Shown here piece after piece: positions 21,716-58,458 of a stretch of DNA of 64,000 bases (position 1 is its first letter; each line of letters opens with the position of its first letter). The notes beneath the pieces are model-generated. The model worked only from the letters and a program-made list of their open reading frames with translations. It did not search any database and had not been told where the DNA came from. Source of the DNA: Chitinophagaceae bacterium (GTDB lineage: Bacteria; Bacteroidota; Bacteroidia; Chitinophagales; Chitinophagaceae); NCBI GenBank assembly GCA_016713965.1, contig JADJOC010000005.1, positions 637-64,636 on the forward strand, written 5' to 3'. Both the position numbers and the translations under genes were made by a program.

Positions 21716-21940
21716 ATGCTTATTTTAGAATATACTTGTAGAATATTATTTATGTTAGCAGCACTTTCTATCGCACTAACTTTTATTGTATTAATACTTC
21801 AAAAAATATTTATCAAAAAAAATAAAAAACTTGATAAAATTAATGATAAAATAGCATATATGGGAGGTATTTGTATTGGATTATTAATATTAAATGGAAT
21901 ATTAGTTGTTGTATATATGGTTATCAGTAAATCTATTTAG
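21716..21940 (+). CDS. two-pass membrane protein, moron-like (74 aa)
   Basis: Two hydrophobic helices. It is the only + strand gene inside the minus-strand tail module and has its own P5 promoter. Confidence 0.5.
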   Translation: MLILEYTCRILFMLAALSIALTFIVLILQKIFIKKNKKLDKINDKIAYMGGICIGLLILNGILVVVYMVISKSI

Positions 21941-24900: not shown

Positions 24901-27900
24901 GGAGTTTCATTGGTATATTTTTCAATCGTATCTTTACTCATATACTCCCTTATCACGCCTTGATTGGGAATATTTGCAGCCATTTTATCCAATCCTTTTT
25001 TATCTCCACCACCTTCACCATCACTCATAGGTTTATCACCGCCCTTTGGCGGTTCTACTGGCGGCTTTTGCCCTCCTTCTTTTGCTGGCGGCTCAACTTC
25101 ACCAGCTTTTGCATTAACAGCACCTTCGCTCTCTGCTTGGATAGTATTTTTGGGAACTTCTGCTTTGGCTTCATTTTTTATCTCTGGTTTAGTAGATAGG
25201 TATTGTTCTTTGGGATTATTTAGTTCCGCTAAGTTTTCTGTATGATGAAAAATGTCGTCTAAAATAGTTGGGTCTTTTAATCCTAACATTTTTGCAACTG
25301 CATCTAAGAATTGCTTAAATACATTTGGTTTTTTGCCTTCGCTTTTAAACTTTGAAAGTATGTCTTGAAATTCAGGATTAGCCATTGCCTCTGCAACAAA
25401 TTCATCCAAATTTTTAAATACGTTATAATTGGTGTCAATTCCATTCTTTTCAAATATGCCTTTAACCTTGTGGTAAATTCTGTTTAGATTATTTAATGCT
25501 TCTAAATCGGTATCTGTTAAGTGATGTAACTGGTCTTTATCAAAGAATGTAATCTTCATTGAAGTTAATTGGTGAATAGCTTCATGTAAAAATGTCTTTA
25601 CCCTATCAGGGGCTTCTTTACTAAGCGTAATGCCATTTAATTTACTACTCTTACCAAATGCCTGTTTACCTTTTTCGTTTACCAACTTATCTACAAAATT
25701 TGTTTTAACCCCTTTTAGTTTATCCCTTATAAGTTTTGCTAATTCAGCAAATGCACCGCCTCTGTTTTCTGCTTCATTAAGTAAATTCTCTGTATGTTGT
25801 TCTGGAGTTGGTTCGGCTTTACTATTGGCTAACTCATGGTCTTTTTTAAGTGCTTCAAATTTATCAATAGCTTTTTGCGAATATGCTTTGGTATTAGCAT
25901 CCTTACCTTTCATATTTTCTTGGTGATGCTCAATAAGTTTATTCAAAGCAACAATCGGATCTGTCAAAGCCAACTTATGCAATTCAGGATTAGTTTCAGC
26001 CAACCCACTAACAAAACTATCAACCCGTCCTTTTGCATCCTTCTGCTCCTGTGTCAATTCCACATTTTCCCCTACACCACTACCTTCTCCCCTACCATTT
26101 ACTTCTATTGGTGGTGGCACATTATCACCTTCTGGTATTCCTGTGGCTTGGTCAATACCTTCAATCTTTTCTGATTGGCTGGTATCTTCTTCTTTTGGTT
26201 TGTTTTCTATAATATCATTAATAGCTTCCAGTTCTGCCTTGGATTCCTTAACCTCTTTTTCATTTGGTTCAATAGTTTTACCTTCAGCATCTTTTTTAGG
26301 CTCTAGCGATTTTTCCAACGAATTTTTTCTTGATTCTAATTGTTTATCGGTTTTAGGTTCAAGTATGTAATCATTTTTAAAATCAGCTACTAAGGCTGTA
26401 TGTTCTGCTTTTTCTTTTTGACGTGGTGGGAGTTGTTTTTTTAGCGCTTCGTTTTTAACCGCTTCGTTATATAAATAATCACCTTTTTCTTTTTCAGACA
26501 AAGGTTGCCCTTTTGAATTTGTTGTAGGTAAATTTTTATAAGCGGCTGCGGAACTTTCAATGCTGTTTTTTACTTGCTCAAAATCAGTTGTAGATAAATT
26601 GCCATCCTTTACCATTTGTCTAGCCTGCTCAATAAATTCAGTAGGATTTTTACCTGTTTCTAAAAATGAACTTTTCTGTAATTCAGTTGGCGATTTATAA
26701 CCAATATGCCCTAATCCTGCGCCTAAAATACCAAAATTCAAAACTCCTATTAATGATTGTTTGAAATTTTGCTCCCTGTCAATTGGTGTGCCTAATACTT
26801 GGTTTTTTAACTCATTACCAGCCGCCATAAAACCCTCAAATTTTGCACCTGCTTTTGCACCTTCTGCAAACATTTTAGGAGTAGCTTTTACCCTTTCTGC
26901 AATTCCACGCAATGCCTTTGGAGTTTTAGACATCATTGCTGATATTTCACTATCAGTCATTTTGTTGATTATCTTTCCTGCGGATGTTTCCATGCCAGCC
27001 ATTTTCTTTATTGCCTCTGCTGTTCCTGCGCCTGCCATTGCAAAAGAACTTATAGCAGTTGAAGCCATAGCATATTTGTAGGCTTCGGATTGTGGCTTGC
27101 CATCCATTATTGCGGCGGCATATTCATCATGGAAACTTGTTGCGGCAGCAGCAGTAAATGTTGATATAAATTTTCTTGCTGCCCCTGCGCTTGCGCCGCC
27201 ACCTGTTACTGATTCCAAAGCAATAAAAGGCACTAAAGTTGCTGCAATATCAGTAACTCCATATAATATTGAAGATGGGGAAACATCAAATTTTCCTCCC
27301 TTTATAGGAACTCTGCCAAATTTGTCTAAATTGTTTTTTAATAGGCTTGTTACCTGCTTTTCTTTTTGCTCATCACTTAATGATTTATTATTTTTTACAA
27401 TATCTATTTGTGATTGCAATTCAGGCTGTATCAATAACTGGCTATCATTAATACTTTTATTTTTATCTGTTTTATGAAAGGTATATTGCTCTTTTAAATT
27501 TTCTCCCATGATAGCCAACTCACGCATATTATTACTTGCATCAGACATAAAAGGACTGCTAACAGCTTCCCAAACGCCTTCTGCTGTATGGGCTACAGAA
27601 GTAAATAACTTCCCTGCTAAATACCCACCAAAATTAGCACGTTGCCCTAAAACTTCTTGGAGGGCATCATCTACCTTATTATCTACTCTATCAGGATATT
27701 TGCTATCTAATTCATTATTATAAGTTGTTAATTCATTATATTTTTTTTCTAATTGTTCAGCTTTTGATAATTGTTCAGGGGATAAGCCACCACCATTATT
27801 TTTTGCCTCTTTGTTTAAACTATTTAAATCTTCATTGATGGCATTTAGTTGAAGATTAACTCCCGTTTCTTCTAAAGTTTGCATCAAATGATTGTATCCT

Positions 27901-35867: not shown

Positions 35868-36134
35868 TTATTCTACTGCTATAATTGCATCTGCATCCAT
35901 TACATAAAATTTTTCTCCATTTTCTTCAAATGGCAAACCCCAATCCATTACCCTATAACCTATTTGTCCTGCTTTTAACTTCATGGGGCGTTTTTTTGTT
36001 CCTTTCCCTACTGCTACAATAGTAACACGGTTAGAATCTTTTTTTGCTGAATCGGGTACAAAAATTCCTCCTAAAGATATTTCATCAGGGAGGAAACATT
36101 TTACCATAATTTGATTTTTGATTGGGGCTGCCAT
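35868..36134 (-). CDS. GroES/Cpn10-fold protein inside the virion module (88 aa)
   Basis: IMVKCFLPDEISLGGIFVPDSAKKDSNRVTIVAVGKG...KAGQIGY...GEKFYVMDADAIIAV is co-linear with the GroES consensus. Confidence 0.6.
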   Translation of the reverse strand: MAAPIKNQIMVKCFLPDEISLGGIFVPDSAKKDSNRVTIVAVGKGTKKRPMKLKAGQIGYRVMDWGLPFEENGEKFYVMDADAIIAVE

Positions 36135-45181: not shown

Positions 45182-47542
45182 TTACATTGGTGGTTGAATT
45201 TCATCTTCCTGCATTTGCATTTGTTGCTGCTCTTGTTCTTGTTGCATCATCATTTCTTCTTCGCTAGGCTGTTCTTGTTCCATACCTTCTTCACCTTCCA
45301 TTTGCTCTTGTTGTGCAGCTTGCATTTGTTGAATGATAGCTTGTTGTTGTTGTTGGTTTTCTACAGCCAAAGGCAACATTAAGTTTTGCATTACAGTATC
45401 TACTAAAGGTTGAATATTAGGCGCAATTGGTAACCCTTTGCTTAATATTGAACTTACCATATTAATTACTGCACTTTTATTTTGCGCTTCTCCTTGCAAC
45501 CTTATTTCTTCTGTTTTTGATTGTGCCTCAAATTGCTTCATTTCCATATCCATCTTGCCCTTAATCATTACGGATTCCTGCTGCCCTTTTGCGTTCATTT
45601 CTGCATTTTGTTGCGCCTGCTGCATTTTGGAAGCAAGCATTTTTTTCATGCAATTGTTGTAATACAAATCTGCCAGCTTCACATTCTCACGGGCTATCCG
45701 CAATACCTTGTAAGTATCCAAATACATTACAATATCTGGATTGGAAACAATAGCCTGATTCATCTTTTCATTAAGAATCGCTATATCCTGATCAGTAGGA
45801 AGCATTTCTATTTTAGTCCCAAAAATCCTGTTATCTACATCTTCCTCTTTTAATAATTTTCTATACGTTTTAGCCCCAAACAAAACAGATTTTTGAAGCA
45901 AACAAGCTATTTTTTTAGCCGTTTCTTCTAATAATATTTTATATGCTTGATACATATAATTAGTAGAATTGTCTGCTGCTTGTTGTGAGGCATCTACATT
46001 ACCCGCTGTTACTCTAGGCTGTAAAGCCTGATTCATTAAGTCGGGATTTTCTCCTAATTCATCTTTTATTAATTGATACTGAAATCGATACATTTCCATA
46101 AGGGCCTGCATCTGCCCTACAAACCCTGTGTTTTGTAATTCAGTTATTGGAACTCCAATTGGCTTCCCCTCTGCATCATAGCCACGGTAATACATATCAC
46201 CAGTCTGGTCAAATAATGTTTTAAAATCTACATTTTTGTTATTATCGCCAGTCCCATAATCTATATTTTGTATTGCATCCCAATTTATTGCACTACCAGT
46301 TGGGCGCATTTTTGCAACTACTTGTTGCATTTTCATATCAATAATTATCAACTGTTTTAGTGGTACTGATATTTTTTCAGGAATAGCCAGATTACGCATC
46401 TGGAAGTTTTGGTACATATAAAAACTGTAAGAAAACTCTGCATTCCCTATTTCTTTAGGGTCTTGCGGACGGATCATATTTTTCTTTATGCCCCACTCTA
46501 AAATTTTCTGATTTTTTCTTATATAAACTCCACGGTATATATTCCAATAAGTATCTTCAACTGATTTTTGGTTATCCCTTATTTTTTTAGGAGTACCTTT
46601 TTGAATGATGGTACTTTTGTTTTGTTTGGTTTCAGTAACCGTATATTTTTCACAATCAACTGATTTTACTTCAAATTCAAGTACATCCACATTCCATTCA
46701 TCATAAGGACGTTGGATAGCCACTGACCATTCTGCGTTCCATCTTAATTTATCACTAAGCTGCCAGTCTTTTGATGTGGCAGCTATTTCATATAGTTCTT
46801 CTTCTGTAAGTTTGCCGCCAAATTCTACACCATACTTCCTGCGCATTTCACTTACCTTCATTGAACGGACTATGCCTCTCCAAGTAGTATCCCTAAAATC
46901 AGAAAATTCAGACCAAGAATAAATTGTATTTTCTGGTTTTTGATAATCCGCATGAATTACTCCATCTTCATCCATCCAAACATAGCTACCTACAAGACCT
47001 ACCTCTGCGCTATCATGCAGTATTTTTTCTTTTATTACATCAAACCATCCGTTAGCAGCAAGAACATCATTTACCCCCTGCTCATATAAAATTTCTTCTG
47101 GTAATTTATTAAGGCTTTTAAATAAGGCTAGTTCATCAACATCATTAGGTATTTCTTTCCCTTGCGGCATTACCTGCACACCTGATGCTTGCTGTAATTC
47201 TTCCAGCATTGCACGGTTGTACATATAAAATTCCAATTCCTGAAATTCCTCTTCTCTTTGTTTGGTGGAAAGTGAATCAGTAGCCGTTATAACTATTTTT
47301 TCCCTTTTCTGCATACTCCTACCCACCCATCCTGAAATAATACGGTTAACTATTTTAAGGCTTTCCCAGTTAAGGTTTGCGTAGTTGAACTTGCCATTAA
47401 ACCCCAACAAATCCATAAACTGCTTCATGGGTATTCTACCATTGGCAGCTAATCTATTGGAGAAAAATTGTGTATCCCGTGCAAAGTAATACCCACTATA
47501 CCCTGACTGTACAGTTCCATCAATATACTTAGCCATAGCCAA
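45182..47542 (-). CDS. portal protein candidate (786 aa)
   Basis: Its size, its position downstream of the large terminase gene (with the + strand RHH gene between them), and its Gln/Glu-rich acidic C-terminal tail all fit a portal. Confidence 0.65.
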   Translation of the reverse strand: MAMAKYIDGTVQSGYSGYYFARDTQFFSNRLAANGRIPMKQFMDLLGFNGKFNYANLNWESLKIVNRIISGWVGRSMQKREKIVITATDSLSTKQREEEFQELEFYMYNRAMLEELQQASGVQVMPQGKEIPNDVDELALFKSLNKLPEEILYEQGVNDVLAANGWFDVIKEKILHDSAEVGLVGSYVWMDEDGVIHADYQKPENTIYSWSEFSDFRDTTWRGIVRSMKVSEMRRKYGVEFGGKLTEEELYEIAATSKDWQLSDKLRWNAEWSVAIQRPYDEWNVDVLEFEVKSVDCEKYTVTETKQNKSTIIQKGTPKKIRDNQKSVEDTYWNIYRGVYIRKNQKILEWGIKKNMIRPQDPKEIGNAEFSYSFYMYQNFQMRNLAIPEKISVPLKQLIIIDMKMQQVVAKMRPTGSAINWDAIQNIDYGTGDNNKNVDFKTLFDQTGDMYYRGYDAEGKPIGVPITELQNTGFVGQMQALMEMYRFQYQLIKDELGENPDLMNQALQPRVTAGNVDASQQAADNSTNYMYQAYKILLEETAKKIACLLQKSVLFGAKTYRKLLKEEDVDNRIFGTKIEMLPTDQDIAILNEKMNQAIVSNPDIVMYLDTYKVLRIARENVKLADLYYNNCMKKMLASKMQQAQQNAEMNAKGQQESVMIKGKMDMEMKQFEAQSKTEEIRLQGEAQNKSAVINMVSSILSKGLPIAPNIQPLVDTVMQNLMLPLAVENQQQQQAIIQQMQAAQQEQMEGEEGMEQEQPSEEEMMMQQEQEQQQMQMQEDEIQPPM

Positions 47543-47629
47543 GCCATTTTCAGGTTTGGATTTTTCAGCAATAGTTAGTTTTGAAAGTTGAAAGTCTTTT
47601 AGAATATTATTGCCGCTGCTTGCTATATC

Positions 47630-47659
47630 TTTGGTAGAATCTATGGTATAGTATATTTG
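47630..47659 (+). promoter_or_regulatory. Bacteroidota-type promoter for the RHH gene
   Basis: TTTG (47630-47633), N18, TATATTTG (47652-47659). Confidence 0.4.
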
Positions 47660-47712
47660 GTAGTAAAAGTAAATTTAATACCAAGCATTTACTAGGTTGT
47701 TTAATAGAAAAT

Positions 47713-47729
47713 GGTTACCTTTGGTAACC
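47713..47729. promoter_or_regulatory. perfect palindrome GGTTACCtttGGTAACC (operator-like)
   Basis: 7-bp half sites, 19 nt upstream of the RHH-like ORF's start. Confidence 0.5.
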
Positions 47730-47747
47730 TAATAATTTGTACTTTTT

Positions 47748-47927
47748 ATGCCAACACTACCATTAAAATCCATTCCTAAAGAAGTAAATGATTATGTTTT
47801 GAAAATACAAACTCAAATAAAGATAAAAAAAGGAGTTAGCCATTATTCAAAATGCTTAACAATTTACCACATAATAAAAGAACACAAGGAGATTAAGGAA
47901 AAGGAGATGAAAGAAAAAAAAGTTTAG
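47748..47927 (+). CDS. ribbon-helix-helix-like small DNA-binding protein (59 aa)
   Basis: Hand-translated MPTLPLKSIPKEVNDYVLKIQTQIKIKKGVSHYSKCLTIYHIIKEH... It is a lone + strand ORF between portal and terminase, with a 4-nt convergent overlap with terL. Confidence 0.45.
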   Translation: MPTLPLKSIPKEVNDYVLKIQTQIKIKKGVSHYSKCLTIYHIIKEHKEIKEKEMKEKKV

Positions 47928-50026
47928 TTTGTTTTTGCTACATAGGAGTTATTAGGATATAGCTTTATTAGGGGGGTAGTCATTGGGGTAGGTTTTGGTG
48001 TTGGCTCCATTAAACAAGAAATTAGCATTAAAAAAGAAACAATAACATCATAAGCTGTTCTGTCATAAGGATCAAATACTTTTGCTGTAGTAAGCACTTC
48101 TTCAAAATCAATTAAATCACAATGATTTTCAAAATAAGCAATGCCATTATCCAATTGTTTAGTTAAACTAAATGGAGTTATTGGAGTACCTCGATGCCTT
48201 TCTGCCTTTTCTCTTTTCGTAGGGTCAATTAAACTAATAGGGTATTTCCCCAAATAGCCAATCTTACCTCTTTCCCTAAAATAACCTTCATAATCATCTG
48301 CGGTATGCTCATACCAAGTTAAATAGCCATAAAATTCACTAGCTAACATTACTTGACTGTGAAGTTCATCTTTAACTTGTGGACGACCATATAAATGTCC
48401 AATAGCTTTGCCTGTATTATAAGGGTCATTAACATCAAATTTTCTACCAATCCATGCAGACGCTTTTGAGCCGTATTTTCTACCACCTTGTGAGTTAGAA
48501 TAACTATCTACAGTAATACATCCATCTTCTATTCGATCTGGCATAGTAATTCTACCATCTCTTTTAAATTTATTATCTTGTCCACTAGGGGGGAAATAGG
48601 TTATTTTCCAATGAAAACTTTTTTCATTATTTGTAACATCACGCCATTTTACTTTTTGATCCATATCCCTATAAAATATAACTGACCTTTTATATATTTT
48701 ATGCTCTTTTAAATATTCTTCCCTTCGAGAAATGTTATGCATGTTAAATACACAATCAGTATTTGCAGCCATAAACATCTCTACTTCATTAAAAGAGTAT
48801 TTACGTATTTCTTCTTCTAAAGCTGCTCCTTTTAATTTACTTCGTCTTTTTTCTAAATATGCCTTTGCGCCAAATTTAAGTTGCCCATCATATTTTTTTT
48901 CACCATATTTTTCTATTAAATATTTTTTTTGTTCTTCTGTTGGTGGTTCAATTATTGATTCCCCATATTTACCAATAAACCCTGCAAGCCCATCATAAGC
49001 AGGGCAATAATAACGTACTAAAGTATTGGCTGTGGCTTCATTATCCATATCCAACACTTCATCAACTTCATCAATATCTATATCATCTTTTATCCAGTCG
49101 GCATCATCCCATACTTTTTTAAATTCAGCACCCCCCTTTTTTGTAAGTTCATTTACCGTACTTGGGAATTCTCCGAACCCTGTACGCTCTGCACCTTCGG
49201 TTAAAGTTTCTAAGATAATAGAAACAAATTGAGAGAAAGGAACATCTGTTGGGAACTTGCCCCCTTCATCAATGAAAGCCCATGTAAGCCTTTCCGAATC
49301 ATAGCTATTTGTTGCTGTAGGCTGGTAATCTAATATAGAATTTAGCCCTTCTACTTCATCAATTAATTGCGCTTTTTTTGTTTTCTTTGTTTTTGCCAAA
49401 GGAACATTAAAAACAAGTTCACTTTTACTATCCTTATCATTAGCTAAAGTAGGCTGTAGAAAAAATGGCAAATGTCTAAACCCAAATTGCATCCTGTAAA
49501 TAAACATTTTACGGGCATCCGCACTTGTTTTAGATACATGCCCACCCCTTGCATTTTTAGTTGTGGTTACATGACAAGTAGTATTAGATGAAGATTCAGA
49601 AGATGCACCAGAACGCCTTGATTTACCACGAATGATACCACGACACCAATAAACATTATACCAATGTTCTAAATACAAATAATATCTTCTGCTGGTATCT
49701 CTATATTCAGGATGCTTTCTATTTTCAAGTGTCCAGTATTGTAAGTAATAATAATGCCGCCCTGTTATATAAGTAGCAACCCCATTCAAAAAAAACCAAA
49801 ACCCTTTTTTTATTCTTTCCAGTTCTCTATTACAAAATTTTTCTTGTTCATTTGTTAGAACCACATTACCATCTTCATCACGTTCTAATACCTTAAATAT
49901 TTTTGGCAAAGGTTTCCTGCGCCAGTATTGTTCTTCTTTCGGAACTCCCCAATCTTCTATTTCTTCAATATGTGGTTGATTTGGTAGTGTGATTTTGGTA
50001 TGATATATTTCTATTATTTCCCCCAT
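47924..50026 (-). CDS. terL: terminase large subunit (700 aa)
   Basis: Size, the Walker-B-like WAFIDEGGKF, a P-loop-like RGKSRRSGAS, and its position upstream of the portal. Confidence 0.75.
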   Translation of the reverse strand: MGEIIEIYHTKITLPNQPHIEEIEDWGVPKEEQYWRRKPLPKIFKVLERDEDGNVVLTNEQEKFCNRELERIKKGFWFFLNGVATYITGRHYYYLQYWTLENRKHPEYRDTSRRYYLYLEHWYNVYWCRGIIRGKSRRSGASSESSSNTTCHVTTTKNARGGHVSKTSADARKMFIYRMQFGFRHLPFFLQPTLANDKDSKSELVFNVPLAKTKKTKKAQLIDEVEGLNSILDYQPTATNSYDSERLTWAFIDEGGKFPTDVPFSQFVSIILETLTEGAERTGFGEFPSTVNELTKKGGAEFKKVWDDADWIKDDIDIDEVDEVLDMDNEATANTLVRYYCPAYDGLAGFIGKYGESIIEPPTEEQKKYLIEKYGEKKYDGQLKFGAKAYLEKRRSKLKGAALEEEIRKYSFNEVEMFMAANTDCVFNMHNISRREEYLKEHKIYKRSVIFYRDMDQKVKWRDVTNNEKSFHWKITYFPPSGQDNKFKRDGRITMPDRIEDGCITVDSYSNSQGGRKYGSKASAWIGRKFDVNDPYNTGKAIGHLYGRPQVKDELHSQVMLASEFYGYLTWYEHTADDYEGYFRERGKIGYLGKYPISLIDPTKREKAERHRGTPITPFSLTKQLDNGIAYFENHCDLIDFEEVLTTAKVFDPYDRTAYDVIVSFLMLISCLMEPTPKPTPMTTPLIKLYPNNSYVAKTN

Positions 50027-50373
50027 TAAGCAATTACTTTATCTAAAAATGAACCTTTCTTTGCAACATCTTTCACTTCATCACCTGTTACCCCTGCCGC
50101 ATCTCCCAATGCTTTAATTGCTGTAGCCAAAGAAGCTGCATCTTGCCATATTATTTTAAGCCTATCAAATTTCTTTGATTTAGGGTCATCCATTTCTATT
50201 GTTTTCAAATCAGTATCATTCATCAAATCTCCCATTTCCCACGCTTTACGGGAAAGAGAATAATATAATTTGGCTATACCATTTTCTTCATACTTTTTAT
50301 TTATTTTTTCTAGCCTGCTATTTTCTTCTTTGAGTTTTTTATTCTCCTTTTGCAGTTCTTCTAGTGCATCCAT
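50026..50373 (-). CDS. terminase small subunit candidate (115 aa)
   Basis: N-terminal coiled coil; 1-nt overlap with the terL start. The call rests on position only. Confidence 0.35.
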   Translation of the reverse strand: MDALEELQKENKKLKEENSRLEKINKKYEENGIAKLYYSLSRKAWEMGDLMNDTDLKTIEMDDPKSKKFDRLKIIWQDAASLATAIKALGDAAGVTGDEVKDVAKKGSFLDKVIA

Positions 50374-50379
50374 AAAAAT

Positions 50380-50694
50380 TTATTTTGGATTTTTTATTTT
50401 CAATCTCCACTGTTCAATAGTAAGAGGATGAAATTCTTTTTGCAAGTATCTTATTTCTACATTTCCAAATTGCTTATCTGGCTTTCCCCAACCTTTATGA
50501 GAATGTTTATCCCAAGGAATATTTGAAATCTCAATATCACTATCATGTTTAATCCACTCATAATTTAATGGGAATGGTATCTCTACATCATAAATTATTC
50601 TTAAATTCCATTTTGTTTGCCAAGCAATTTTATCTATATAATAATTAAGATATTCTACCGATTCATTAATTCTACTTTCTAAGTAAACACTCAT
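50380..50694 (-). CDS. hypothetical phage protein (104 aa)
   Basis: ATG at 50694, just after the groES fusion's stop. Confidence 0.5.
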   Translation of the reverse strand: MSVYLESRINESVEYLNYYIDKIAWQTKWNLRIIYDVEIPFPLNYEWIKHDSDIEISNIPWDKHSHKGWGKPDKQFGNVEIRYLQKEFHPLTIEQWRLKIKNPK

Positions 50695-50696
50695 TT

Positions 50697-51236
50697 TTAA
50701 ACATCTTTGAGTAAACAATCAGATTCCCTCATCAGCAAATATTTTTCTTCATTAATTTCTATATATGTTCCAACACCTTGCCCAAACTTTACCCTATCTC
50801 CTTTTTTAATTTCCATTGATTCATTAAATTTTCCTTTGCCAGCAGAAATAACTAATCCCATTTGTATTTTTTCTTTTATCCCATCAGGAATTATTAAACC
50901 ACCTTTTGATTTGGTTTTAGCATCATCTAATTTTACCAAAATCCTATCTTCTAATAAGATTACTTCATCCCCATCTAAAATAATTAAAACATCAGTCTCC
51001 TTTAAAATAAAATATTTTTTACCATTTTCTTCAAACTCAATTACATTACTATAATATATAGTGTTCCCAATTTTTACAGTCATTTTTCGTCCAGTAATAC
51101 CACCACCAACTGCTATTACTTTACCACTAATATATTTTTTTTTTACTGAATCACGAATTATTATACCCCCCTTAGTTTCACTTGATACCTCAAAAGGCTC
51201 TACTATTATTCTATCTTGTAATGGCCTAATTCTCAT
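50697..51236 (-). CDS. groES: tandem-fused double co-chaperonin (two GroES/Cpn10 domains, 179 aa)
   Basis: Domain 1 is MRIRPLQDRIIVEP...TKGGIII...GKVIAVGGG...ETDVLIIL. Domain 2 is LEDRILVKLDD...SKGGLIIP...GLVISAGKG...KKGDRVKF...ESDCLLKDV. Confidence 0.8.
   Translation of the reverse strand: MRIRPLQDRIIVEPFEVSSETKGGIIIRDSVKKKYISGKVIAVGGGITGRKMTVKIGNTIYYSNVIEFEENGKKYFILKETDVLIILDGDEVILLEDRILVKLDDAKTKSKGGLIIPDGIKEKIQMGLVISAGKGKFNESMEIKKGDRVKFGQGVGTYIEINEEKYLLMRESDCLLKDV
51181..51236. repeat. direct repeat copy A (5' end of the fused groES)
   Basis: 44 of the first 45 nt are identical to 52850-52894. Confidence 0.8.
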
Positions 51237-52815
51237 TTGTTTTTATTTTTTCTAGTGAAATAATAGATTCTGTTGTTAAAAAAATTGCAGCAATAGATGA
51301 TGAGTTTTCCAAAGCTGTTCTTACTACTTTTGTTGGATCAACAATACCAGATTTAAAAAAATTCTCTATTTCATTTGTTTTTACATTATACCCAATTCCA
51401 TAATCACTTTTCATAATTTCATTTATATAAATATTAGGTTCTACATCTGCATTATATAAAATTTGTTTAAATGGAGATTCTAGTGATTTTTTAAGAATAG
51501 AAACTCCAATGCTTTCGTCTTCATTTTCACAAATAATATCAATATCTTTTAAAGCATGTAAGTATGTAACTCCACCACCAGCTACAAACCCTTCTTCTAC
51601 TGCTGCTTTGGTAGCACATAAAGCATCATCTATTCTATCCTTTTTTTCCTTAATCTCTGTTTCCGTAAACCCTCCTATACTTAACACAGCCACGCCATTT
51701 TTTAATTTAGCTAATCTTGATTTAAGGTTTTCTTTTTCATAATTAGATTCAGCTTCTTCCATTTGATTTTTTATTTGATTACACCTGCTTTCAATATCTT
51801 CCTTAATACCATGCCCGCCAACTATTGTACAACTATCTTTAGTTATTGTTATTTTATCTGCACTACCCAACATATCAATAGTAGTATTGTCCAACCTAAA
51901 CCCTTTTTCTTCTGAAATGCAAGTAGCATTTATTAATGTTGCAATATCATCCATAACAAAAAATCTATTACCCCCAAATTCAGGTAATTTTATTGCACAA
52001 ACAGATAATAATCCCCTCAATTTATTCACTACCATTGTTGCCAATGCTTCACCATCAAGGTCTTCCGAAATAATTAATAACGGACGGCCAGTTTGAGAAA
52101 CTTTTTCTAAAATATGTAAAATATCTTTAATGGCAGAAATCTTTTTATCATAAATTAGAATGTAAGGATTATTTAATTCTGCCTGCATTTTTTCACTGTT
52201 AGTTACAAAGTAGGGAGATAAATATCCCCTTTCTATTCTCATTCCTTCAACCAAATTTACAGTAGTTTCATGTCCTTGTGATTCTTCAACAGTAATCAAA
52301 CCATCCCTACCAACTTTTTCCATAGCTTCTGCAATCAATTCCCCAATAAAAGAATCATTATTTGCAGAAATGGAAGCTATTTGTTTTAATAAATCATTAT
52401 TATCAATAGGTTTAGAGATTTTATTAATGTTTTTTACTACTTCTTTAGTAGCCTTTTCGATACCTCTTTTTAAATCCATTGCATTTGCGCCTAATTCAAT
52501 AGCCTTAATTCCTGCATTTATAATGGCTTGTGCCAAAACAGTTGCCGTAGTTGTGCCATCACCCGAAACATCAACAGTCTTAGATGCTACTTCTTTGATT
52601 AAAGATGCTCCCATATTTTCAACAGGATCAGACAATTTAATTGATTTTGCCACAGTTACCCCATCTTTGGTTATATGAGGATACCCAAATTCTCTTTCAA
52701 TAATAACATTCTTCCCTTTTGCTCCTAATGTACTTTTTACAGCATCAGCAAGAATATTGATACCTTTTACTATTTTTTTTCTTCCATCTGACCCTGATGT
52801 TACGATTGTATTCAT
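51226..52815 (-). CDS. groEL: chaperonin GroEL/Cpn60 (529 aa)
   Basis: GDGTTTATVLA nucleotide-binding motif, AAVEEGFVAGGGV, and co-linearity with bacterial Cpn60 over the full length. It lacks the GGM C-terminal tail. Confidence 0.9.
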   Translation of the reverse strand: MNTIVTSGSDGRKKIVKGINILADAVKSTLGAKGKNVIIEREFGYPHITKDGVTVAKSIKLSDPVENMGASLIKEVASKTVDVSGDGTTTATVLAQAIINAGIKAIELGANAMDLKRGIEKATKEVVKNINKISKPIDNNDLLKQIASISANNDSFIGELIAEAMEKVGRDGLITVEESQGHETTVNLVEGMRIERGYLSPYFVTNSEKMQAELNNPYILIYDKKISAIKDILHILEKVSQTGRPLLIISEDLDGEALATMVVNKLRGLLSVCAIKLPEFGGNRFFVMDDIATLINATCISEEKGFRLDNTTIDMLGSADKITITKDSCTIVGGHGIKEDIESRCNQIKNQMEEAESNYEKENLKSRLAKLKNGVAVLSIGGFTETEIKEKKDRIDDALCATKAAVEEGFVAGGGVTYLHALKDIDIICENEDESIGVSILKKSLESPFKQILYNADVEPNIYINEIMKSDYGIGYNVKTNEIENFFKSGIVDPTKVVRTALENSSSIAAIFLTTESIISLEKIKTNEN

Positions 52816-52836
52816 ATTGATTTTTATATTTTATGA

Positions 52837-52905
52837 TTAATTATTTGTACTTGATACCTCAAAAGGCTCTACTATTATTCTGTCTTGTAATGGTTTTACT
52901 TTCAT
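52837..52905 (-). pseudogene. truncated groES remnant (22 codons) in the canonical position upstream of groEL
   Basis: MKVKPLQDRIIVEPFEVSS then TNN-stop. There is a 21-nt spacer to the groEL ATG, and its ATG overlaps the stop of the upstream gene (ATGA). Confidence 0.7.
52850..52905. repeat. direct repeat copy B
   Basis: See copy A; the two copies bracket groEL. Confidence 0.8.
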
Positions 52906-53501
52906 ACTGTAACTGTTTGTTTATTTAAATCTGTAATTGTTTCTCCCTCTTTTATATAAATTACTTTATCAATAATAATAAAGTGTTTATATGGAGTATT
53001 AGTATTGTATTCAATAACATTTGCAATTTCTCCAGTTGAATAAACTTGAATTTTTTTAATTGAATTTGCTGGTGATAATCTTCCCATATCAAAATGATCT
53101 TCTTTACTAAAATAAAGAATTGTAGTGTGATCTTTTTGTTCTGCTTGAATAATTGTAACAGAAATTGATAAATACCCCTTTATATCTTTATTATTTATAG
53201 TAAATAAATACCCATCAAAATATAATTGATAAAGAAAATCAGGTGTAATTTCGTTAGAAGGGGGATATTGTACTGCAATAACTTTTTTAATTTCTTCAAA
53301 ATCATCCCCATCTAAAATTAGATATGACAACCCGTCTAATTTTGGGTAATTATAAAAATCTAAATATCTGGAATATTCGTGCAATAGTTTAATTGGTTTA
53401 ATAATATCATCATTATTAAATTTGGATATTTTTTCTTCTTTATAAACATCAAGAAAAATTAATAGCCTTTTTAAATTGTCATAAATTGCTTTGTTCGTCA
53501 T
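52902..53501 (-). CDS. hypothetical phage protein (199 aa)
   Basis: ATG at 53501 avoids overlap with the upstream gene. Confidence 0.5.
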   Translation of the reverse strand: MTNKAIYDNLKRLLIFLDVYKEEKISKFNNDDIIKPIKLLHEYSRYLDFYNYPKLDGLSYLILDGDDFEEIKKVIAVQYPPSNEITPDFLYQLYFDGYLFTINNKDIKGYLSISVTIIQAEQKDHTTILYFSKEDHFDMGRLSPANSIKKIQVYSTGEIANVIEYNTNTPYKHFIIIDKVIYIKEGETITDLNKQTVTV

Positions 53502-53506
53502 ATATT

Positions 53507-54181
53507 TTATTTTATTGGTTTTGCATTTTGCGGAGTAGTACCTACCCATAATTTACCTTCATACAACTGCTCGGTTAAGTTTTCGTCTATCGCAATTATT
53601 TCCTCTCTGTCATGTGTTTCATTTTCAAAATGCCTGCACCTTACTATGTGTTCATCCACCCCTTTTTCATTTCTAAAAAGTATGTTGTAATCACATGCTT
53701 TCAATGTTTTAACTACTTTACCTTTGTATTCCCCTGTTTTTATAAATAAGGTGTCTTTGAATAGTTTTGGGGTTAAACCTACCAGCCTACCTTCGTAGGG
53801 CTTATATACCCTTTCAGCAATCGCAAATCCTTTGGTTGGCTTCCATTCTTCATCTCCCACCATCTTCCATAAAAAACACTCTGCTTCTACAAAGCTATAA
53901 ATTTTTATTCCAGATGCAATTTCTTCGCCACTTAACCCACTATGATTGGTTATTAAGTTGGAATCATGTGCGCTGTTAAAATGGAACAACAACAAAGCAT
54001 CTGTGGGGATATGCTCTGCTGATATTACTACTCCTAATATTTGTTGGGTGTAACTTCTATCCAGGTTATCATACTTACGCTCTACCCTTATAGTAGTTCC
54101 ATCTGAAAAGGTATAGAAGTTCTTTTGCTCTGTATCTACCTTTACTATTACTCTGCCTTGTACGTGTTTTAGTTTGTTCAT
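53507..54181 (-). CDS. hypothetical protein with a GroES-like N-terminus (224 aa)
   Basis: LKHVQGRVIVKVD...ILGVVISAE is weakly reminiscent of Cpn10/gp31-type co-chaperonins. Confidence 0.5.
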   Translation of the reverse strand: MNKLKHVQGRVIVKVDTEQKNFYTFSDGTTIRVERKYDNLDRSYTQQILGVVISAEHIPTDALLLFHFNSAHDSNLITNHSGLSGEEIASGIKIYSFVEAECFLWKMVGDEEWKPTKGFAIAERVYKPYEGRLVGLTPKLFKDTLFIKTGEYKGKVVKTLKACDYNILFRNEKGVDEHIVRCRHFENETHDREEIIAIDENLTEQLYEGKLWVGTTPQNAKPIK

Positions 54182-54939
54182 GGTCTGTTTTTAATCCAGT
54201 CTAACATAATTTTTGGATGTGGGTAATCAATAATACTTAAATCTGTTTTTGGGTCAAACCATAAATCAGGGTTAAATAATTCTTCCTGATCTAATTTTTT
54301 ATCGTAATCCATTCCAAAAACATCCCTTTGCATATTGATAACCTTTGATTTCATTACTTCTTTTTTTCTTACAAATCCATAATGCCAAATATCAATATCA
54401 TTTACATAATCCATTATACATTGTGCATCTATACTTTCAGCATCTCCTATTGATCGGTAACAAGTTTTTGCAAGCCTTATTATTTGAGTGCTACATGGTT
54501 TTCTTTCATGTGGAACATTCAAATAATGGTAAGGAGTTTTCCAAAGATTTATCCGTGTACACATAAATGCTTCCTTACCTGTTTTAACCGCTTTTATTAT
54601 TGCATCATAACTTTTTTCATGGATTATTTCATCTGCTTGAAGATTGAGTTGGTACTCATATCCTGCTTTTTCTGCTGCTTCAATGGCTATGTTGGTAAAG
54701 TAATTTAGTTTTTCTTTACCATGTTGCTCATGCCATGATTCAGGTAAAAGCCTTATAAAGGTTGTTTTATCATCACATAAATTAAGTAGTATATCTTTAT
54801 CTGTATCATCATCTGACCCTGCATCTAAAATAAACACATGATCGCAAAATTCTTTCAAACATTTGATTGATTCAGCATAACAATAATCAAATGTTTTTCC
54901 ATTTCGCACAAATAAAGTTCCAGCTAATTTTTTACTCAT
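54178..54939 (-). CDS. glycosyltransferase family 2-like (253 aa)
   Basis: FVRNGKTF...FILDAGSDDDT is an N-terminal GT-A nucleotide-sugar-binding pattern. Confidence 0.55.
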   Translation of the reverse strand: MSKKLAGTLFVRNGKTFDYCYAESIKCLKEFCDHVFILDAGSDDDTDKDILLNLCDDKTTFIRLLPESWHEQHGKEKLNYFTNIAIEAAEKAGYEYQLNLQADEIIHEKSYDAIIKAVKTGKEAFMCTRINLWKTPYHYLNVPHERKPCSTQIIRLAKTCYRSIGDAESIDAQCIMDYVNDIDIWHYGFVRKKEVMKSKVINMQRDVFGMDYDKKLDQEELFNPDLWFDPKTDLSIIDYPHPKIMLDWIKNRP

Positions 54940-55658
54940 ACTATAAATTTACCTTTTAAATCAATATCATCATAATCCTTTAAACGCTCCCTTATATAAT
55001 CCATACGCATATTTATTTCCCATTCCCTATCCATGTGGTTAGCTACATTCCAAGATAGTTTACCAAAGTGAATATGCGAGCCATAATCCATTCCTAATAC
55101 ATCTTTATCAATATTACCTTTCTTTCTATCAATTTGATGATGCGTAAACCCGTGTTCAAATATCTTTTCTGTCATCCAGCTTCCAACATCGTAACTCCAA
55201 TCTGTTGTATCTCTAAATGTATGTACCCCTTTTTCTTTCATCGCTTCAATATCAAACATAAAAAACCATGCTCCTATACGTGGTTTAACTGGTGCATTTA
55301 ATTGATCGCCTGTAATTAATTCCCCCGCTACCTTACATTTTTCGTTTAATAATGGCAAATACTTATCATATACATTTTCTAAAAACTCTACATCGGTATC
55401 GCACAGTAAAACATATTTTGTTTCTATATTAGTATATACAATATTAACAGATTGTTCATGCCCGTGATTAATGATAAAATCATAAAATGGTATTTTATTT
55501 TCTTTTAACCATTCTTTAGAACCGTCATCGCTCCCATTATCCACCAGTAATAATTTTAAAGGCTCTCCTTTATAGTGATGCTTAACAAAACTTTTTAACA
55601 TCAATTCCATTACCGTTTTGTTATTCCAGCTTACTGAAACTAAGGTTATATCTTGCAT
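54936..55658 (-). CDS. glycosyltransferase family 2 (240 aa)
   Basis: TLVSVSWNN...LLLVDNGSDDGS...LLCDTDVEF, with a DxD motif. Confidence 0.65.
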   Translation of the reverse strand: MQDITLVSVSWNNKTVMELMLKSFVKHHYKGEPLKLLLVDNGSDDGSKEWLKENKIPFYDFIINHGHEQSVNIVYTNIETKYVLLCDTDVEFLENVYDKYLPLLNEKCKVAGELITGDQLNAPVKPRIGAWFFMFDIEAMKEKGVHTFRDTTDWSYDVGSWMTEKIFEHGFTHHQIDRKKGNIDKDVLGMDYGSHIHFGKLSWNVANHMDREWEINMRMDYIRERLKDYDDIDLKGKFIV

Positions 55659-56285
55659 TTACATTTTTTTAATGATAACTAATCCGCAACTTGTAAAAAT
55701 CCATTCGATGTTTTTTTCAAAATAAGTGGCATCGTATTTTTTTACGGCTTCCTGCTTGTTGGCACAAATAAAACTATTGGGTATTTTGCCATTCATTTGT
55801 ACCTCTCCTACCATATCCTTTATCCTGTCTATTATTTTCACTTTTTCATTCCAGCGAGAATCATATCCGCACAAAACATCCTCGATGCAATACAAGCCTC
55901 CACTCTTTAAAAGAGGAAATAAAGTGTTAAATGAAATTAATTGATGCTCTCCTATATGTGATCCATCGTCAATAATAATATCAAATGAAGGATGTAAATC
56001 AAATAAATTCATTAATTGAGAATGAGAACTTTGGTCGCATATTATTGTTCTTATTCTTTCTGAATTAAATTGTTTTTTATCTTCAATATCAATACCTACT
56101 ACATCTGCATTTACAAAGTATTCTTTCCACATTTTTAGTGATGCCCCTTCCCAAACTCCTATTTCTAATAAATTTTTAACCTTATCTTTTAACGGGCTAA
56201 AAAACATCTCATAATATTGTAAATAATTATGACAAGTAGATGCTTTATCTGTTTGATATTTTAAACCCAATTCATCTAAACTCAT
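55659..56285 (-). CDS. class I SAM-dependent methyltransferase, sugar O-methyltransferase-like (208 aa)
   Basis: YQTDKASTCHNYLQYYE...LLEIGVWEGASLKMW...VGIDI...IIDDGSH. Confidence 0.65.
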   Translation of the reverse strand: MSLDELGLKYQTDKASTCHNYLQYYEMFFSPLKDKVKNLLEIGVWEGASLKMWKEYFVNADVVGIDIEDKKQFNSERIRTIICDQSSHSQLMNLFDLHPSFDIIIDDGSHIGEHQLISFNTLFPLLKSGGLYCIEDVLCGYDSRWNEKVKIIDRIKDMVGEVQMNGKIPNSFICANKQEAVKKYDATYFEKNIEWIFTSCGLVIIKKM

Positions 56286-57046
56286 ATTTGTTTTATTAAA
56301 TGTGAAAATTGTTCTTTATTTTTTTGTACATATTCAGGAAAACTATCATCAATCTCCACAAATGGCCATAAATCATGTGGCTCATTTGACCATAAAGACT
56401 GCCCTATTTCTAATTTATGTTTCAGCACTTCTTCATTATTAAGTTTTGGCGTGTTACATTCCTGATGTGAAAAACTATCCAACTTATTTCTTATAGCTTC
56501 CACACCACCCAAATACGACCAATGCCAGCCAGCGTGTTCTATTTGGTTATCAAAGCCACTATTTCGGACTTCATTTGGTGTTTTATCTTTCAGGTAACTA
56601 TAAGGCATAATCCTTGAAGACTTCCAACTTTGTTTCCCTTCTATACAATTTAAAAAGTAACCAAACTTATCCATTACTAATGCCGTCTGCCCCATCCCTA
56701 TATGGTAATTTTTTATGGCTTGCGCTCTAGGTATTTCGTCCGCATCGCCTATAATAACTATATCACTATCATTACAATTTTCTAATCCCAATATAATATT
56801 ATTTCTTTGGAATTTTTCATTATCCCATGCATTCCCATTGTTAGGTGGATTATTAATTATCCCATGAATAATATTGTATCCCCTAAATTCATCATAATTT
56901 TCTTTAAAAAATAGTGGTTTAGGTTTTCCCGTAAAGGAGTGAGTACATTCTACCAATACATGATTTACATTTAGTGGTTTTAATTCTTCGCACCTTATTT
57001 TTAATAAATCAAATTCCTTAAAAAAGGTAAAGCAGTCGTATATCAT
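56282..57046 (-). CDS. glycosyltransferase family 17-like (254 aa)
   Basis: MIYDCFTFFKEFDLLKIRCEEL...FTGKPKPLFF...QRNNI...IIGDADEIP matches the GT17 N-terminal signature. Confidence 0.7.
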   Translation of the reverse strand: MIYDCFTFFKEFDLLKIRCEELKPLNVNHVLVECTHSFTGKPKPLFFKENYDEFRGYNIIHGIINNPPNNGNAWDNEKFQRNNIILGLENCNDSDIVIIGDADEIPRAQAIKNYHIGMGQTALVMDKFGYFLNCIEGKQSWKSSRIMPYSYLKDKTPNEVRNSGFDNQIEHAGWHWSYLGGVEAIRNKLDSFSHQECNTPKLNNEEVLKHKLEIGQSLWSNEPHDLWPFVEIDDSFPEYVQKNKEQFSHLIKQI

Positions 57047-58458
57047 TGTTGGTGAAATTTATTAATAGTATCAATTACAGTTTCGTAATCAGTTTTGCAA
57101 CATTGCAAATGTTTTTCATCTCCAAAGTAAGCGCAGTCTTGTCCTTTTGTTCCTCCTACAATATGCCAGCATCCAGCTTTATCACAATTACTTTGTATAA
57201 TTTCTACATTGGTTAAATCAGGATGGATGTAATCAGGATTTACCGAGCCGAAAAACAATATGCAAGGTTTATTATAGGCTACGGCAATTCCCGCTGGTGC
57301 GCTATCTTCTCCAATAAAAAAATCACATCCTGCAATTAACCATTTTAACACCCCTACTTTACCAAAGGTATTGTAATGTTGCCCACATTTATTATTTCCA
57401 CTACCTATTTGTAAAACAAAATACCCTAATGCTTCCAAATGTTTTTGCACTTTCTTCCAATCAACTCCTAAAATATTTCTATGAGGTGTTGAACGATCGT
57501 CATTATGAATGACAACATATTTTTTAAAAGGTTTTGTTACTTCATCTACCAAAGGCCAAAGGATAGGGCGTGTAAGTGTGTAATCTTTAATACCACAAAA
57601 TTCAAAGTAGCTTTTTTGATAGTTTTGGCATGGCTTAACTTCGTATGCCATATCAAGATTAATTTCTTTTTCTGGCTTAATCCTGCCAATATCAAACTGT
57701 GAAATATGTTTTATAGGGAAATAATGTTGCTCAAATAACGCAAAGCAATCTGCTGGAATATCCAGCACTACATTATATCCTTGCATGTAAAAATGCCGCA
57801 TAATAGGCTCTAAAATAACAATATCTCCTATTGCACCCGAACGTTTTAAAATAACCGTAGGTTTATACGGCTCATGAAAATATCCATGAAAACCAAATGT
57901 TTTACTTGCTGGCTCTCTTAATTCATAAGCAAACCTATCAGCAACATGCTCTGGTGCAAATTTAATCCCGTGCTTACCTTTTAAATAATCACCGTATAAA
58001 ATACAAATAGACTGATCTTCGGGATGGCAAATGTCAATTAAATCATCTGTTCCTAATATTGTTTGCAGTTTTTTTGAGCGCAAAGAAAACCCACCATTCC
58101 CTACATTTCTTCCATGCTGGTACAACCACGGTGCGCCAATGTAATCATAATTTAAAAAGTAATTACCCCATACACTACCATCCAATACCCAAGCATCATG
58201 TTGTGTTACTAATACATAATCTGTATCAAAATATTTATATAACTCCTTCACCACGAAATCACTATAATCTTCTTTACTTTTTATGGATGGTATTTGCACA
58301 ACTTCAATACCTTCTATTTCTAAAGGTATATCCGTTAAAAACTTAACGGCTGCAAACTCACATTGCTTCATAGATTTTTGTAAAGAATCTACTGCTTTCC
58401 CGTAATTATAACAGTCTGCTAACACTAAACAAACATTTGGTAATTTTATTCTATTCAT
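57043..58458 (-). CDS. two-domain glycosyltransferase: DUF5672-like N-domain + GT9 (heptosyltransferase-like) C-domain (471 aa)
   Basis: N-domain has ...DYIGAPW...VGNGGFSLRSKKL. C-domain has ILKRSGAIGDIVILEPI... and FIGEDSAPAGIAVAYNKPCILFFG. Confidence 0.6.
   Translation of the reverse strand: MNRIKLPNVCLVLADCYNYGKAVDSLQKSMKQCEFAAVKFLTDIPLEIEGIEVVQIPSIKSKEDYSDFVVKELYKYFDTDYVLVTQHDAWVLDGSVWGNYFLNYDYIGAPWLYQHGRNVGNGGFSLRSKKLQTILGTDDLIDICHPEDQSICILYGDYLKGKHGIKFAPEHVADRFAYELREPASKTFGFHGYFHEPYKPTVILKRSGAIGDIVILEPIMRHFYMQGYNVVLDIPADCFALFEQHYFPIKHISQFDIGRIKPEKEINLDMAYEVKPCQNYQKSYFEFCGIKDYTLTRPILWPLVDEVTKPFKKYVVIHNDDRSTPHRNILGVDWKKVQKHLEALGYFVLQIGSGNNKCGQHYNTFGKVGVLKWLIAGCDFFIGEDSAPAGIAVAYNKPCILFFGSVNPDYIHPDLTNVEIIQSNCDKAGCWHIVGGTKGQDCAYFGDEKHLQCCKTDYETVIDTINKFHQQ

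Follow-up and report, generated by a model that had tools for sequence, protein, structure and literature searches.

Co-chaperonins that carry two Cpn10 domains in a single chain have so far been treated as a speciality of the chloroplast, and a review published in 2018 called this two-domain type 'chloroplast-specific' (PMC5780408). In chloroplast Cpn20/Cpn21 and in Cpn23 of Chlamydomonas, two Cpn10 domains are arranged head to tail with a very short linker, and both mobile loops are present; how such a two-domain subunit fits to a seven-fold ring is still debated. The lid of the Chlamydomonas chloroplast was reported to contain two Cpn20, one Cpn23, and one Cpn11, which makes seven domains (bioRxiv 10.1101/2021.07.26.453741), and Cpn10(1) of Arabidopsis was reported to be active only in hetero-oligomers with Cpn20 (PMC4242682). 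Here, we describe the same head-to-tail architecture in a phage. The DNA analysed (hereafter the window) is a stretch of 64,000 nucleotides deposited under Chitinophagaceae bacterium (GCA_016713965.1, contig JADJOC010000005.1). In it, the gene for a group I chaperonin GroEL of 529 aa (51226..52815, minus strand) is followed by that for a 179-aa protein with two Cpn10 domains in one chain (50697..51236, minus strand), referred to below as the tandem GroES. We consider it likely that the two genes form a phage group I chaperonin cassette, in which GroEL is accompanied by an overlapped, Cpn20-like tandem GroES lid.

Chaperonins of phages and viruses have been described before. Marine et al. (2017, ISME J; PMC5649160) reported that viral GroEL is abundant, that the order is reversed to GroEL>GroES throughout entire clades, and that viral GroES can have roof-hairpin deletions; the words 'tandem' and 'fusion' do not occur in that paper. 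T4 gp31 and RB49 CocO are phage-encoded lids for morphogenesis, and the loss of their roof hairpin is expected to enlarge the chamber. The chaperonins of jumbo phages (EL gp146, OBP, and AR9) are reported to be highly divergent and lid-independent (PMC7185714, PMC9598537).

We first describe the GroEL of the window. An initial annotation, made from the letters of the sequence, had taken the 529-aa ORF as a Cpn60, and this was borne out by matches to Pfam Cpn60_TCP1 (PF00118; 2.6e-73), to phrog_5725 'chaperonin groEL' (7.8e-167), and to the NCBIfam GroEL equivalog TIGR02348 (706.5 bits; cutoff 582.1). The protein showed 49% identity to E. coli GroEL. When the two were aligned, the residues of the nucleotide site (the GDGTTT motif, D52, D87, and D398) and the apical residues that bind GroES and substrate (Y199, Y203, F204, L234, L237, L259, V263, and V264) were found to be kept. 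The C-terminal Gly-Gly-Met (GGM) tail, which is typical of the GroEL family and does not define it, was missing, as it was from the Elemovirus GroELs and from those of two related loci (L004 and L005).

The tandem GroES gene overlaps the GroEL gene by 11 nt, and its ATG lies inside the 3' end of the latter. The 179-aa protein matched Pfam Cpn10 (PF00166) in two stretches (2.1e-40, 137.1 bits; cutoff 21.1), was matched twice by all NCBIfam GroES models, and was assigned to phrog_3188 GroES. With a custom Cpn10 HMM built from about 40 single-domain GroES proteins, two non-overlapping matches were obtained at aa 1-88 (i-E 1.8e-22) and aa 95-175 (i-E 5.4e-22), spanning HMM positions 1-95 and 6-91, respectively. 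Hence the initial annotation was right in reading two complete Cpn10 domains in this chain, and every motif that it quoted was found in the translations. The N-terminal domain (aa 1-89; 50970..51236, minus strand) has the mobile loop TKGGIII and the C-terminal domain (aa 90-179 plus the stop codon; 50697..50969, minus strand) has SKGGLII; the two loops (KGG-III and KGG-LII) align without gaps to GG-IVL of E. coli. In both halves the roof hairpin is 5 residues shorter than that of E. coli GroES, and the same deletion is seen in phage single GroESs. The aligned domains are spaced by at most 6 residues, leaving almost no linker. Inspection of the junction sequence revealed no in-frame ATG or GTG, so that a separate product of the C half would have no start. 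No N-terminal transit peptide was present on the protein, whose first Cpn10 domain begins at residue 1. These results confirm, far above chance, two complete Cpn10 domains beside a phage GroEL: the 179-aa protein is a true Cpn10/GroES member twice over, and its neighbour is a true GroEL.

The AlphaFold2 model of the 179-aa protein, for which a 27-sequence alignment of tandem Cpn10 proteins was used as the input, had a mean pLDDT of 84.3 and a pTM of 0.76. The confidence was lowest (block means of 54-74) for residues 21-40 and 101-120, which contain both mobile-loop regions. When the model was compared with the PDB by Foldseek, the top match was Chlamydomonas Cpn20 (7EKQ_R; TMq 0.75 over 186 columns) together with Cpn23 (7EKQ_Q; TMq 0.70), whereas single GroES chains aligned to only half of the model (TMq of about 0.4). 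The same Cpn20 and Cpn23 chains were also the best PDB hits by sequence. The superposition on these two-domain proteins suggests that the predicted chain spans two sites next to each other in the lid ring. Each tandem chain would thus take two adjacent positions, as in chloroplast Cpn20, and both of its mobile loops would dock on the apical domains of GroEL. Furthermore, the shortened roof hairpins and the GroEL without a GGM tail may enlarge the chamber for large virion proteins, as has been argued for T4 gp31; the position in a late operon, described below, points to virion proteins as likely clients.

The closest functional likeness of the tandem GroES is Cpn20, in architecture, in predicted geometry, and in the coexistence with a single-domain Cpn10 gene, which is also found in this phage as described below; nevertheless, it stands outside the plastid Cpn20 family. 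Cpn20 is a nuclear-encoded plastid protein with a transit peptide and works with a hetero-oligomeric Cpn60 alpha/beta, whereas the phage protein is phage-encoded, lacks a transit peptide, and would have a phage GroEL with one type of subunit as its partner. In addition, the roof hairpin is shortened in both halves, unlike that of Cpn20. The nearest relatives of each phage half were single-domain GroESs, and no origin shared with Cpn20 was detectable, though a grouping with the plant Cpn20 halves was not specifically looked for. On these sequence comparisons, an origin independent of the plastid protein is the better reading.

The viral cassettes of Marine et al. and Elemovirus gp43/gp44 share with the window the GroEL>GroES order, the roof-hairpin deletion in GroES, and a GroEL of Bacteroidota affinity without a GGM tail, and they too reside in tailed Bacteroidota phages; however, they carry a single GroES of 83-89 aa (83 aa in Elemovirus gp44), which is doubled here. 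The resemblance to T4 gp31 and CocO lies in the phage-encoded lid and the lost roof hairpin. T4 gp31 is a very divergent single domain, and its structure (1G31) matched the tandem model weakly (TMq 0.36, E of about 0.01, 16% identity); moreover, T4 encodes no GroEL, unlike the window phage. The jumbo-phage chaperonins are likewise phage-encoded members of the Cpn60 family. In contrast to them, the window GroEL has 49% identity with the E. coli protein, retains the apical contacts for GroES, and is accompanied by co-chaperonin genes.

Both genes are part of a long array of late genes, all on one strand, in a crAss-related podophage and lie shortly upstream of the terminase. In the order of transcription, the array comprises a methyltransferase and glycosyltransferases, GroEL, the tandem GroES, the large terminase subunit (47924..50026, minus strand; phrog_6681, 8.5e-80), the portal and virion structural proteins, and a crAss-type muzzle protein (PF25731, 5.8e-11); a match to ring protein 2 was weak. 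The isolates nearest by terminase were Flavobacterium Elemovirus and the Cellulophaga phages phi38:1 and phi40:1, at 24-28% identity, and megablast with window positions 47000-57000 found no relatives among the DNA of isolated phages. The DNA is that of an uncultured crAss-related podophage, whose host is probably a Bacteroidota bacterium.

Subsequently, relatives of the tandem GroES were examined. In a database of 5.8 billion protein clusters, two were found, P0001 (90% identical) and P0002 (80% identical), which derive from three other JGI metagenome assemblies (3300056850, 3300020047, and 3300012956) and two genomic backgrounds: locus L003 (90%) and loci L001/L002 (80%). L003, with a terminase 52% identical to that of the window, carries the tandem gene at 114-653 together with the last 40 residues of a GroEL, which are 100% identical. 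In L001/L002, with a terminase of 98% identity and flanking genes of 93-99%, the tandem GroES comes after two unrelated small genes, and no GroEL was found in 18.9 kb.

Several observations weigh against the reading of the gene pair as a chaperonin with its own lid, and that of L001/L002 is the first: in those phages the tandem GroES has no adjacent GroEL and may work mainly with the GroEL of the host. The tandem GroES of the window could, in the same manner, mainly replace the lid of the host GroEL as T4 gp31 does, with the phage GroEL as an optional extra. The tandem GroES of L001/L002 is under purifying selection despite the missing neighbour, a pattern that suggests host-GroEL use of the gp31 type, two further phage-like loci described below (L007 and L023) carry a tandem Cpn10 without a neighbouring GroEL, and GroES-only viruses are commoner than GroEL-carrying ones (Marine et al., PMC5649160). 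On the other hand, in both the window and L003 the tandem gene is translationally overlapped with GroEL through a conserved junction; the L001 contig was covered in part, and a GroEL may be encoded elsewhere in that genome. In any case, roles with the host GroEL and with the phage GroEL are not mutually exclusive. We regard the replacement of the host lid as plausible, though short of probable, and retain the GroEL and tandem GroES cassette as the preferred reading.

The differences among these loci show that the cassette is an accessory, mobile element, which in close relatives is absent, is reduced to the tandem gene, or has a single GroES and lies elsewhere near the terminase. L005 (terminase 48%, partial) has GroEL>single-GroES upstream of its w224 homologue, and L004 (terminase 35%) has GroEL>single-GroES directly after a terminase-like gene. 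The backbone of L014 contains neither GroEL nor the tandem GroES, and its w224-like and w115-like genes are about 155 nt apart. Between the tandem genes of the window and L003, dS was 0.48 in the N half and 0.02 in the C half, a contrast that may reflect a recombination breakpoint, or gene conversion, close to where the two domains meet.

A likely trace of such an exchange was found in the window itself. Immediately upstream of GroEL, the 5' end of the tandem-GroES gene is present as a truncated copy (52837..52905, minus strand), a mini-ORF MKVKPLQDRIIVEPFEVSSTNN* of 22 codons overlapping with the stop codon of the gene before it. GroEL is bracketed by a direct repeat of 65 nt (51172-51236 and 52841-52905; 86% identical, spacing 1669 nt). 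The upstream arm reads ATG AAA GTA AAA CCA TTA CAA GAC AGA ATA ATA GTA GAG CCT TTT GAG GTA TCA AGT and then a stop; it agrees at 93% identity with the beginning of the L001 tandem GroES (MKVK), unlike the window's own MRIR. The repeat looks like the footprint of a cassette insertion and a substrate for deletion of GroEL. A segment with GroEL and a tandem GroES would have been pasted into a resident tandem-GroES gene, if the direction is read correctly, and recombination between the 65-nt repeats would cleanly remove GroEL again. Repeated recombinational exchange of the chaperonin cassette among related phages is the simplest reading of these data.

A six-frame scan of the window with the Cpn10 HMM revealed another gene, for a single-domain, GroES-like Cpn10 of 88 aa in the tail module (35868..36134, minus strand). 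It matched PF00166 (3e-11, 43.6 bits; cutoff 21.1) and phrog_3188 (1.3e-09) and scored below the NCBIfam cutoffs. Its neighbours are a ring-protein-2-like gene on one side and a phrog_13977 structural gene on the other, and the muzzle gene follows downstream. Nine relatives with 54-92% identity were found, and the gene is kept at the same position in L010 (terminase 56%, Cpn10 61%) and L014 (terminase 51%, Cpn10 41%). We know of no description of a GroES gene at this tail-module position in crAss-related phages. The initial annotation had described a doubled GroES instead of a single co-chaperonin; the doubled GroES is there as described, but so is this separate 88-aa Cpn10, and the word 'instead' has to be dropped.

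Two genes of the phage thus provide 2+1 Cpn10 domains, and three tandem chains plus one single chain could make seven (3x2+1). In such a lid, one single-domain Cpn10, either the 88-aa protein or, equally possibly, the host GroES, would complete the ring. The observations that weigh against the pair as we read it include some that concern this partnership. The 88-aa Cpn10 is kept in L014 and L010 without a tandem GroES in the fetched flanks (the L010 stretch stops short of the site upstream of the terminase); since L014 has neither GroEL nor the tandem GroES, the single gene must serve a function independent of them, presumably with host GroEL, and is not necessarily a partner. When three tandem chains and one single chain were concatenated and folded as a single chain without an alignment, a pLDDT of 29.6 and a pTM of 0.19 were obtained, values too low to be informative.

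Alternatively, the lid could be made of the tandem protein alone, for example as a tetramer in which four chains assemble and one of eight domains is left out, and the 88-aa Cpn10 would then serve in tail or baseplate assembly. For Cpn20 of Arabidopsis, tetramers and activity of the homo-oligomer have been reported (reviewed in PMC5780408). Indeed, the 88-aa Cpn10 behaves as a backbone gene of the structural module, as its retention in the relatives above indicates, and is just 27-33% identical to either tandem half. However, the true lid in Chlamydomonas is built as a hetero-oligomer of seven domains, some single Cpn10s require Cpn20 for activity, and a 3+1 lid resolves the symmetry mismatch with no domain unused. 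The homo-oligomer deserves serious weight even so, although we lean against it. As to the mixed lid, we propose tentatively that tailed phages independently invented Cpn20-style multi-domain lids, with tandem and even triple Cpn10 chains, and that, in this phage, three tandem chains and one single Cpn10 (the 88-aa protein or that of the host) form an asymmetric seven-domain lid on a GGM-less GroEL and enclose an enlarged chamber for virion proteins; taken as a whole, this proposal is rather unlikely to hold in every part.

Selection on the two halves was also examined. Nei-Gojobori dN/dS between the copies of the tandem GroES was 0.22-0.35 per half, suggesting that both halves are kept by selection; the C halves of the window and L003 are near-identical and hence gave no information on dN/dS. 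One could still suppose that one half is decaying and no longer binds GroEL, so that the protein is a single GroES with a structural appendage. The halves have in fact diverged faster than their single-domain counterparts: their identity to the singles of related cassettes is 38-48%, against 53-64% when those singles are compared among themselves. In the window, moreover, the N half carries several non-conservative substitutions relative to the orthologues (e.g., GGLIIPD to GGIIIRD), which is a further point against two working halves. But dN/dS is alike in both halves, the two give full-length Cpn10 profile matches of nearly equal strength, and the mobile loop with GG and a hydrophobic tripeptide is kept in each. 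A passenger half is accordingly improbable.

We also asked about the descent of the GroEL. The nearest cellular GroELs are those of Chitinophagaceae, with 59-61% identity, and the best PDB match by sequence is a reconstructed ancestral chaperonin of the Fibrobacteres-Chlorobi-Bacteroidetes (FCB) group, both of which would suit a recent copy of a host gene or bacterial DNA flanking a prophage. However, 60% identity is far from recent, and the window GroEL lacks the GGM tail that is present in the bacterial homologues. Metagenomic GroELs of 528-535 aa are 59-74% identical to it; the four of their contigs that were inspected carried phage genes or a downstream single GroES, and the window GroEL groups with such reversed-order GroELs, several of which are on contigs with homologues of the terminase and neighbouring genes of this phage. 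In addition, the gene lies within a single same-strand array, between structural or glycosyltransferase genes and the terminase, and 185,579 species genomes of bacteria and archaea contained no close relative of the tandem GroES and only ordinary single GroES genes. A recent host origin, which the initial annotation had itself raised, is excluded at about 60% identity and in a phage late array, and we see hardly any room for a host copy.

An A10 homopolymer (51134-51143, minus strand) lies in the N half, in the codons for V-K-K-K-Y, and is a potential hotspot of slippage or sequencing error; the reading frame across it was intact in all four assemblies. The window is a metagenomic assembly and this run is of a type prone to indel errors, yet a 179-aa ORF produced by an error that fused two GroES genes, as also considered in the initial annotation, or collapsed a repeat is very improbable indeed, because four independent assemblies from different samples have the same length of 179 aa and an unbroken junction (...VLIILDGDE(V/I)ILLEDRILVK...), the copies differ by 10-20% with many synonymous changes and a dN/dS well below 1, and halves of about 35% identity are incompatible with the collapse of a repeat.

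How the doubling arose can be approached through the related cassettes. The closest GroELs, P0044 (74%; L108/L109), P0048 (68%; L004), and P0061 (59%; L005), are each followed by a single Cpn10 of 89 aa. The 11-nt overlap of GroEL and GroES is common to the window, L108/L109, and L004 (it is 26 nt in L005), and the junction of the GroEL stop and the GroES start, ACAAATGA.AATTA..CCATTA, is common to the window and L108. The shared overlap and junction indicate that the N half is, in position, the equivalent of the single GroES of the ancestor. The tandem gene also contains an internal repeat of 44 nt (75% identical) with a spacing of 267 nt, or 89 codons; as the N half has 89 residues and the single GroES has 89 codons, the unit length fits a duplication of the whole gene. 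An ancestral cassette with GroEL and then a single 89-aa GroES would most likely have undergone an in-frame tandem duplication of the whole 89-codon gene, and the halves would then have diverged to about 35% identity, both under purifying selection.

The relationships among the domains argue against such a duplication. The halves are 34-36% identical to each other, and each is nearer to single-domain GroESs (about 48-56% for the nearest, by domain alignment) than to the other half; even the singles of the related cassettes, at 38-48%, exceed the value between the halves. In a poorly resolved neighbour-joining tree of the domains, the halves were sisters in 1 of 200 bootstraps, whereas each half-family was monophyletic in 193 and 198 of 200. 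Since the 44-nt repeat falls in the conserved region that codes for the mobile loop, it could also be of convergent origin. As the halves are not sisters and each is nearer to single GroESs, the tandem GroES may instead be a fusion of two different GroES genes.

With regard to frequency, the initial annotation had called phage GroEL rare and known in a few jumbo Pseudomonas phages, which proved wrong. By tblastn, GroEL was found in 278 phage records, including 89 of Vibrio, 73 of Flavobacterium, 9 of Cellulophaga, and 6 of Bacteroides phages, and IMG/VR contained at least 594 GroEL-encoding stretches. The arrangement of GroES was surveyed with the Cpn10 HMM at the 80 of these IMG/VR loci whose GroELs were most similar to that of the window. 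A single GroES was located upstream at 40 loci and downstream or overlapping at 4, and the remaining 36 had no GroES within 3 kb; none of the 80 had a tandem Cpn10. Likewise, tblastn of the phage collection with the tandem GroES returned single GroES genes only, each matched by both halves of the query, and exact-peptide scans of IMG/VR gave no match to the tandem GroES or to the 88-aa Cpn10. An IMG/VR scan with a 400-aa structural protein gave one distant locus; L014 came from a metagenome scan, of which the other returns were mostly short contigs.

The tandem architecture was then sought among metagenomic proteins. A HMMER search with the 179-aa query against 1.84 billion cluster representatives yielded 7,657 matches at E<=0.001. 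Among the best 150 of them plus the two orthologues, 56 had two Cpn10 domains and 4 had three. About half of these multi-domain matches had transit-peptide-like N-terminal extensions of 40-100 residues, and one cluster was named Polytomella chloroplast Cpn20; the remaining ones had 178-205 aa and no extension. The window, P0001, and P0002 form a separate lineage among the multi-domain Cpn10s.

Contigs of four of the other multi-domain Cpn10s were inspected, and some had a viral appearance. L007 (80 kb; tandem Cpn10 at 8001-8546) and L023 (82 kb; 10001-10543) are phage-like, with phrog_62 helicase, RecE-like exonuclease, DnaB, and VRR-NUC genes and no adjacent GroEL. L008/L009 look viral by their RF-1, PTH2, HNH, and RRM genes; the source of L008, whose tandem Cpn10 (3512-4093) has no GroEL nearby, may be a giant virus or a jumbo phage. 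The tandem Cpn10s of L007, L023, and L008 have 180-193 aa and no transit peptide. The chains with three Cpn10 domains (P0166, P0173, P0189, and P0204; 300-368 aa) come from metagenomic contigs, and in a triple Cpn10 of L024 (8836-9759) the N-terminal domain also matches phrog_931 'head morphogenesis'. Multi-domain Cpn10 is a recurrent viral architecture that has apparently not been described.

Full-text searches of the literature on tandem or double GroES or Cpn10 returned chloroplast work and one engineered stress-response paper; their coverage was incomplete, and absence from them does not prove novelty. Within that literature, the statement of the initial annotation that doubled GroES is best known from chloroplast Cpn20 and not from phages agrees with what we found, tandem Cpn10 being described for plastids only. 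What is unusual here is the doubled GroES, whereas the viral GroEL>GroES type of cassette and the abundance of phage GroEL were already known.

Three apparent precedents were rejected. Elemovirus gp30 (180 aa; L006 16200-16742, next to the terminase gene), which is labelled 'co-chaperonin GroES' in RefSeq, gave no match to the Cpn10 HMM and cannot serve as a tandem precedent. A 224-aa ORF of the window (53507-54181, minus strand) was rejected as GroES-like, because its only hit was a weak one to phrog_13932 (E 0.004); it had no Cpn10 HMM match, no phage hits, and no similarity to Elemovirus gp30, and the 'co-chaperonin GroES' label of phrog_13932, a PHROG of 200 positions, is doubtful. The ORF is a conserved backbone gene with homologues in L001, L005, and L014. 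P0052, P0058, and P0059 (599-663 aa) were considered as GroEL-GroES fusions and turned out to be bacterial GroELs with internally repeated segments, probably assembly chimeras.

Other features of the window are as follows. Between the tandem GroES and the gene preceding the terminase there is a small ORF of about 104 aa (50380..50718, minus strand), whose true start is likely the ATG at 50694, directly after the tandem-GroES stop. It had no family match in Pfam or PHROG and was missing from L001/L002, which are otherwise 94-99% identical there. Upstream of the chaperonin genes in the late array is a cluster of glycosyltransferase and methyltransferase genes (54178-58458, minus strand), with GT2 (PF00535) and Methyltransf_24; the cluster is common to L001 and L005, and its L001 homologue adds Glyco_transf_17 and DUF5672. 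The enzymes may serve to glycosylate virion proteins or to alter the surface of the host. The structural array continues past the muzzle gene with an ORF of 2330 aa (21933-28925, minus strand), which has a small N-terminal hit to phrog_24532 as its sole family match and can be likened to the giant structural proteins of Elemovirus (gp18, about 3,690 aa). No tRNA was found in the window. Promoter and terminator counts in 49800-54400 were not above those in shuffled sequence, with a tool that does not include promoters of the Bacteroidota type.

The interest of these findings is tempered by the fact that phage chaperonins are common and that the symmetry problem has already been solved in plastids; the lid function proposed here is predicted from sequence comparison and a structure model. 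The cassette adds to the evidence that chaperonin modules of phages are mobile accessory cassettes. Natural sets for comparison exist in the single-GroES cassettes, the tandem gene without a nearby GroEL, the backbone with neither, and the separate single Cpn10 in the same genome. Furthermore, since the parts are all small and suited to expression in E. coli, the composition of the lid is directly testable. If the reading is true, this would be the first tandem co-chaperonin outside plastids and would offer a bacterial-scale model for the symmetry-mismatch problem of Cpn20. An independent origin in phages would show that the two-domain architecture is a recurrent solution and not a plastid oddity.

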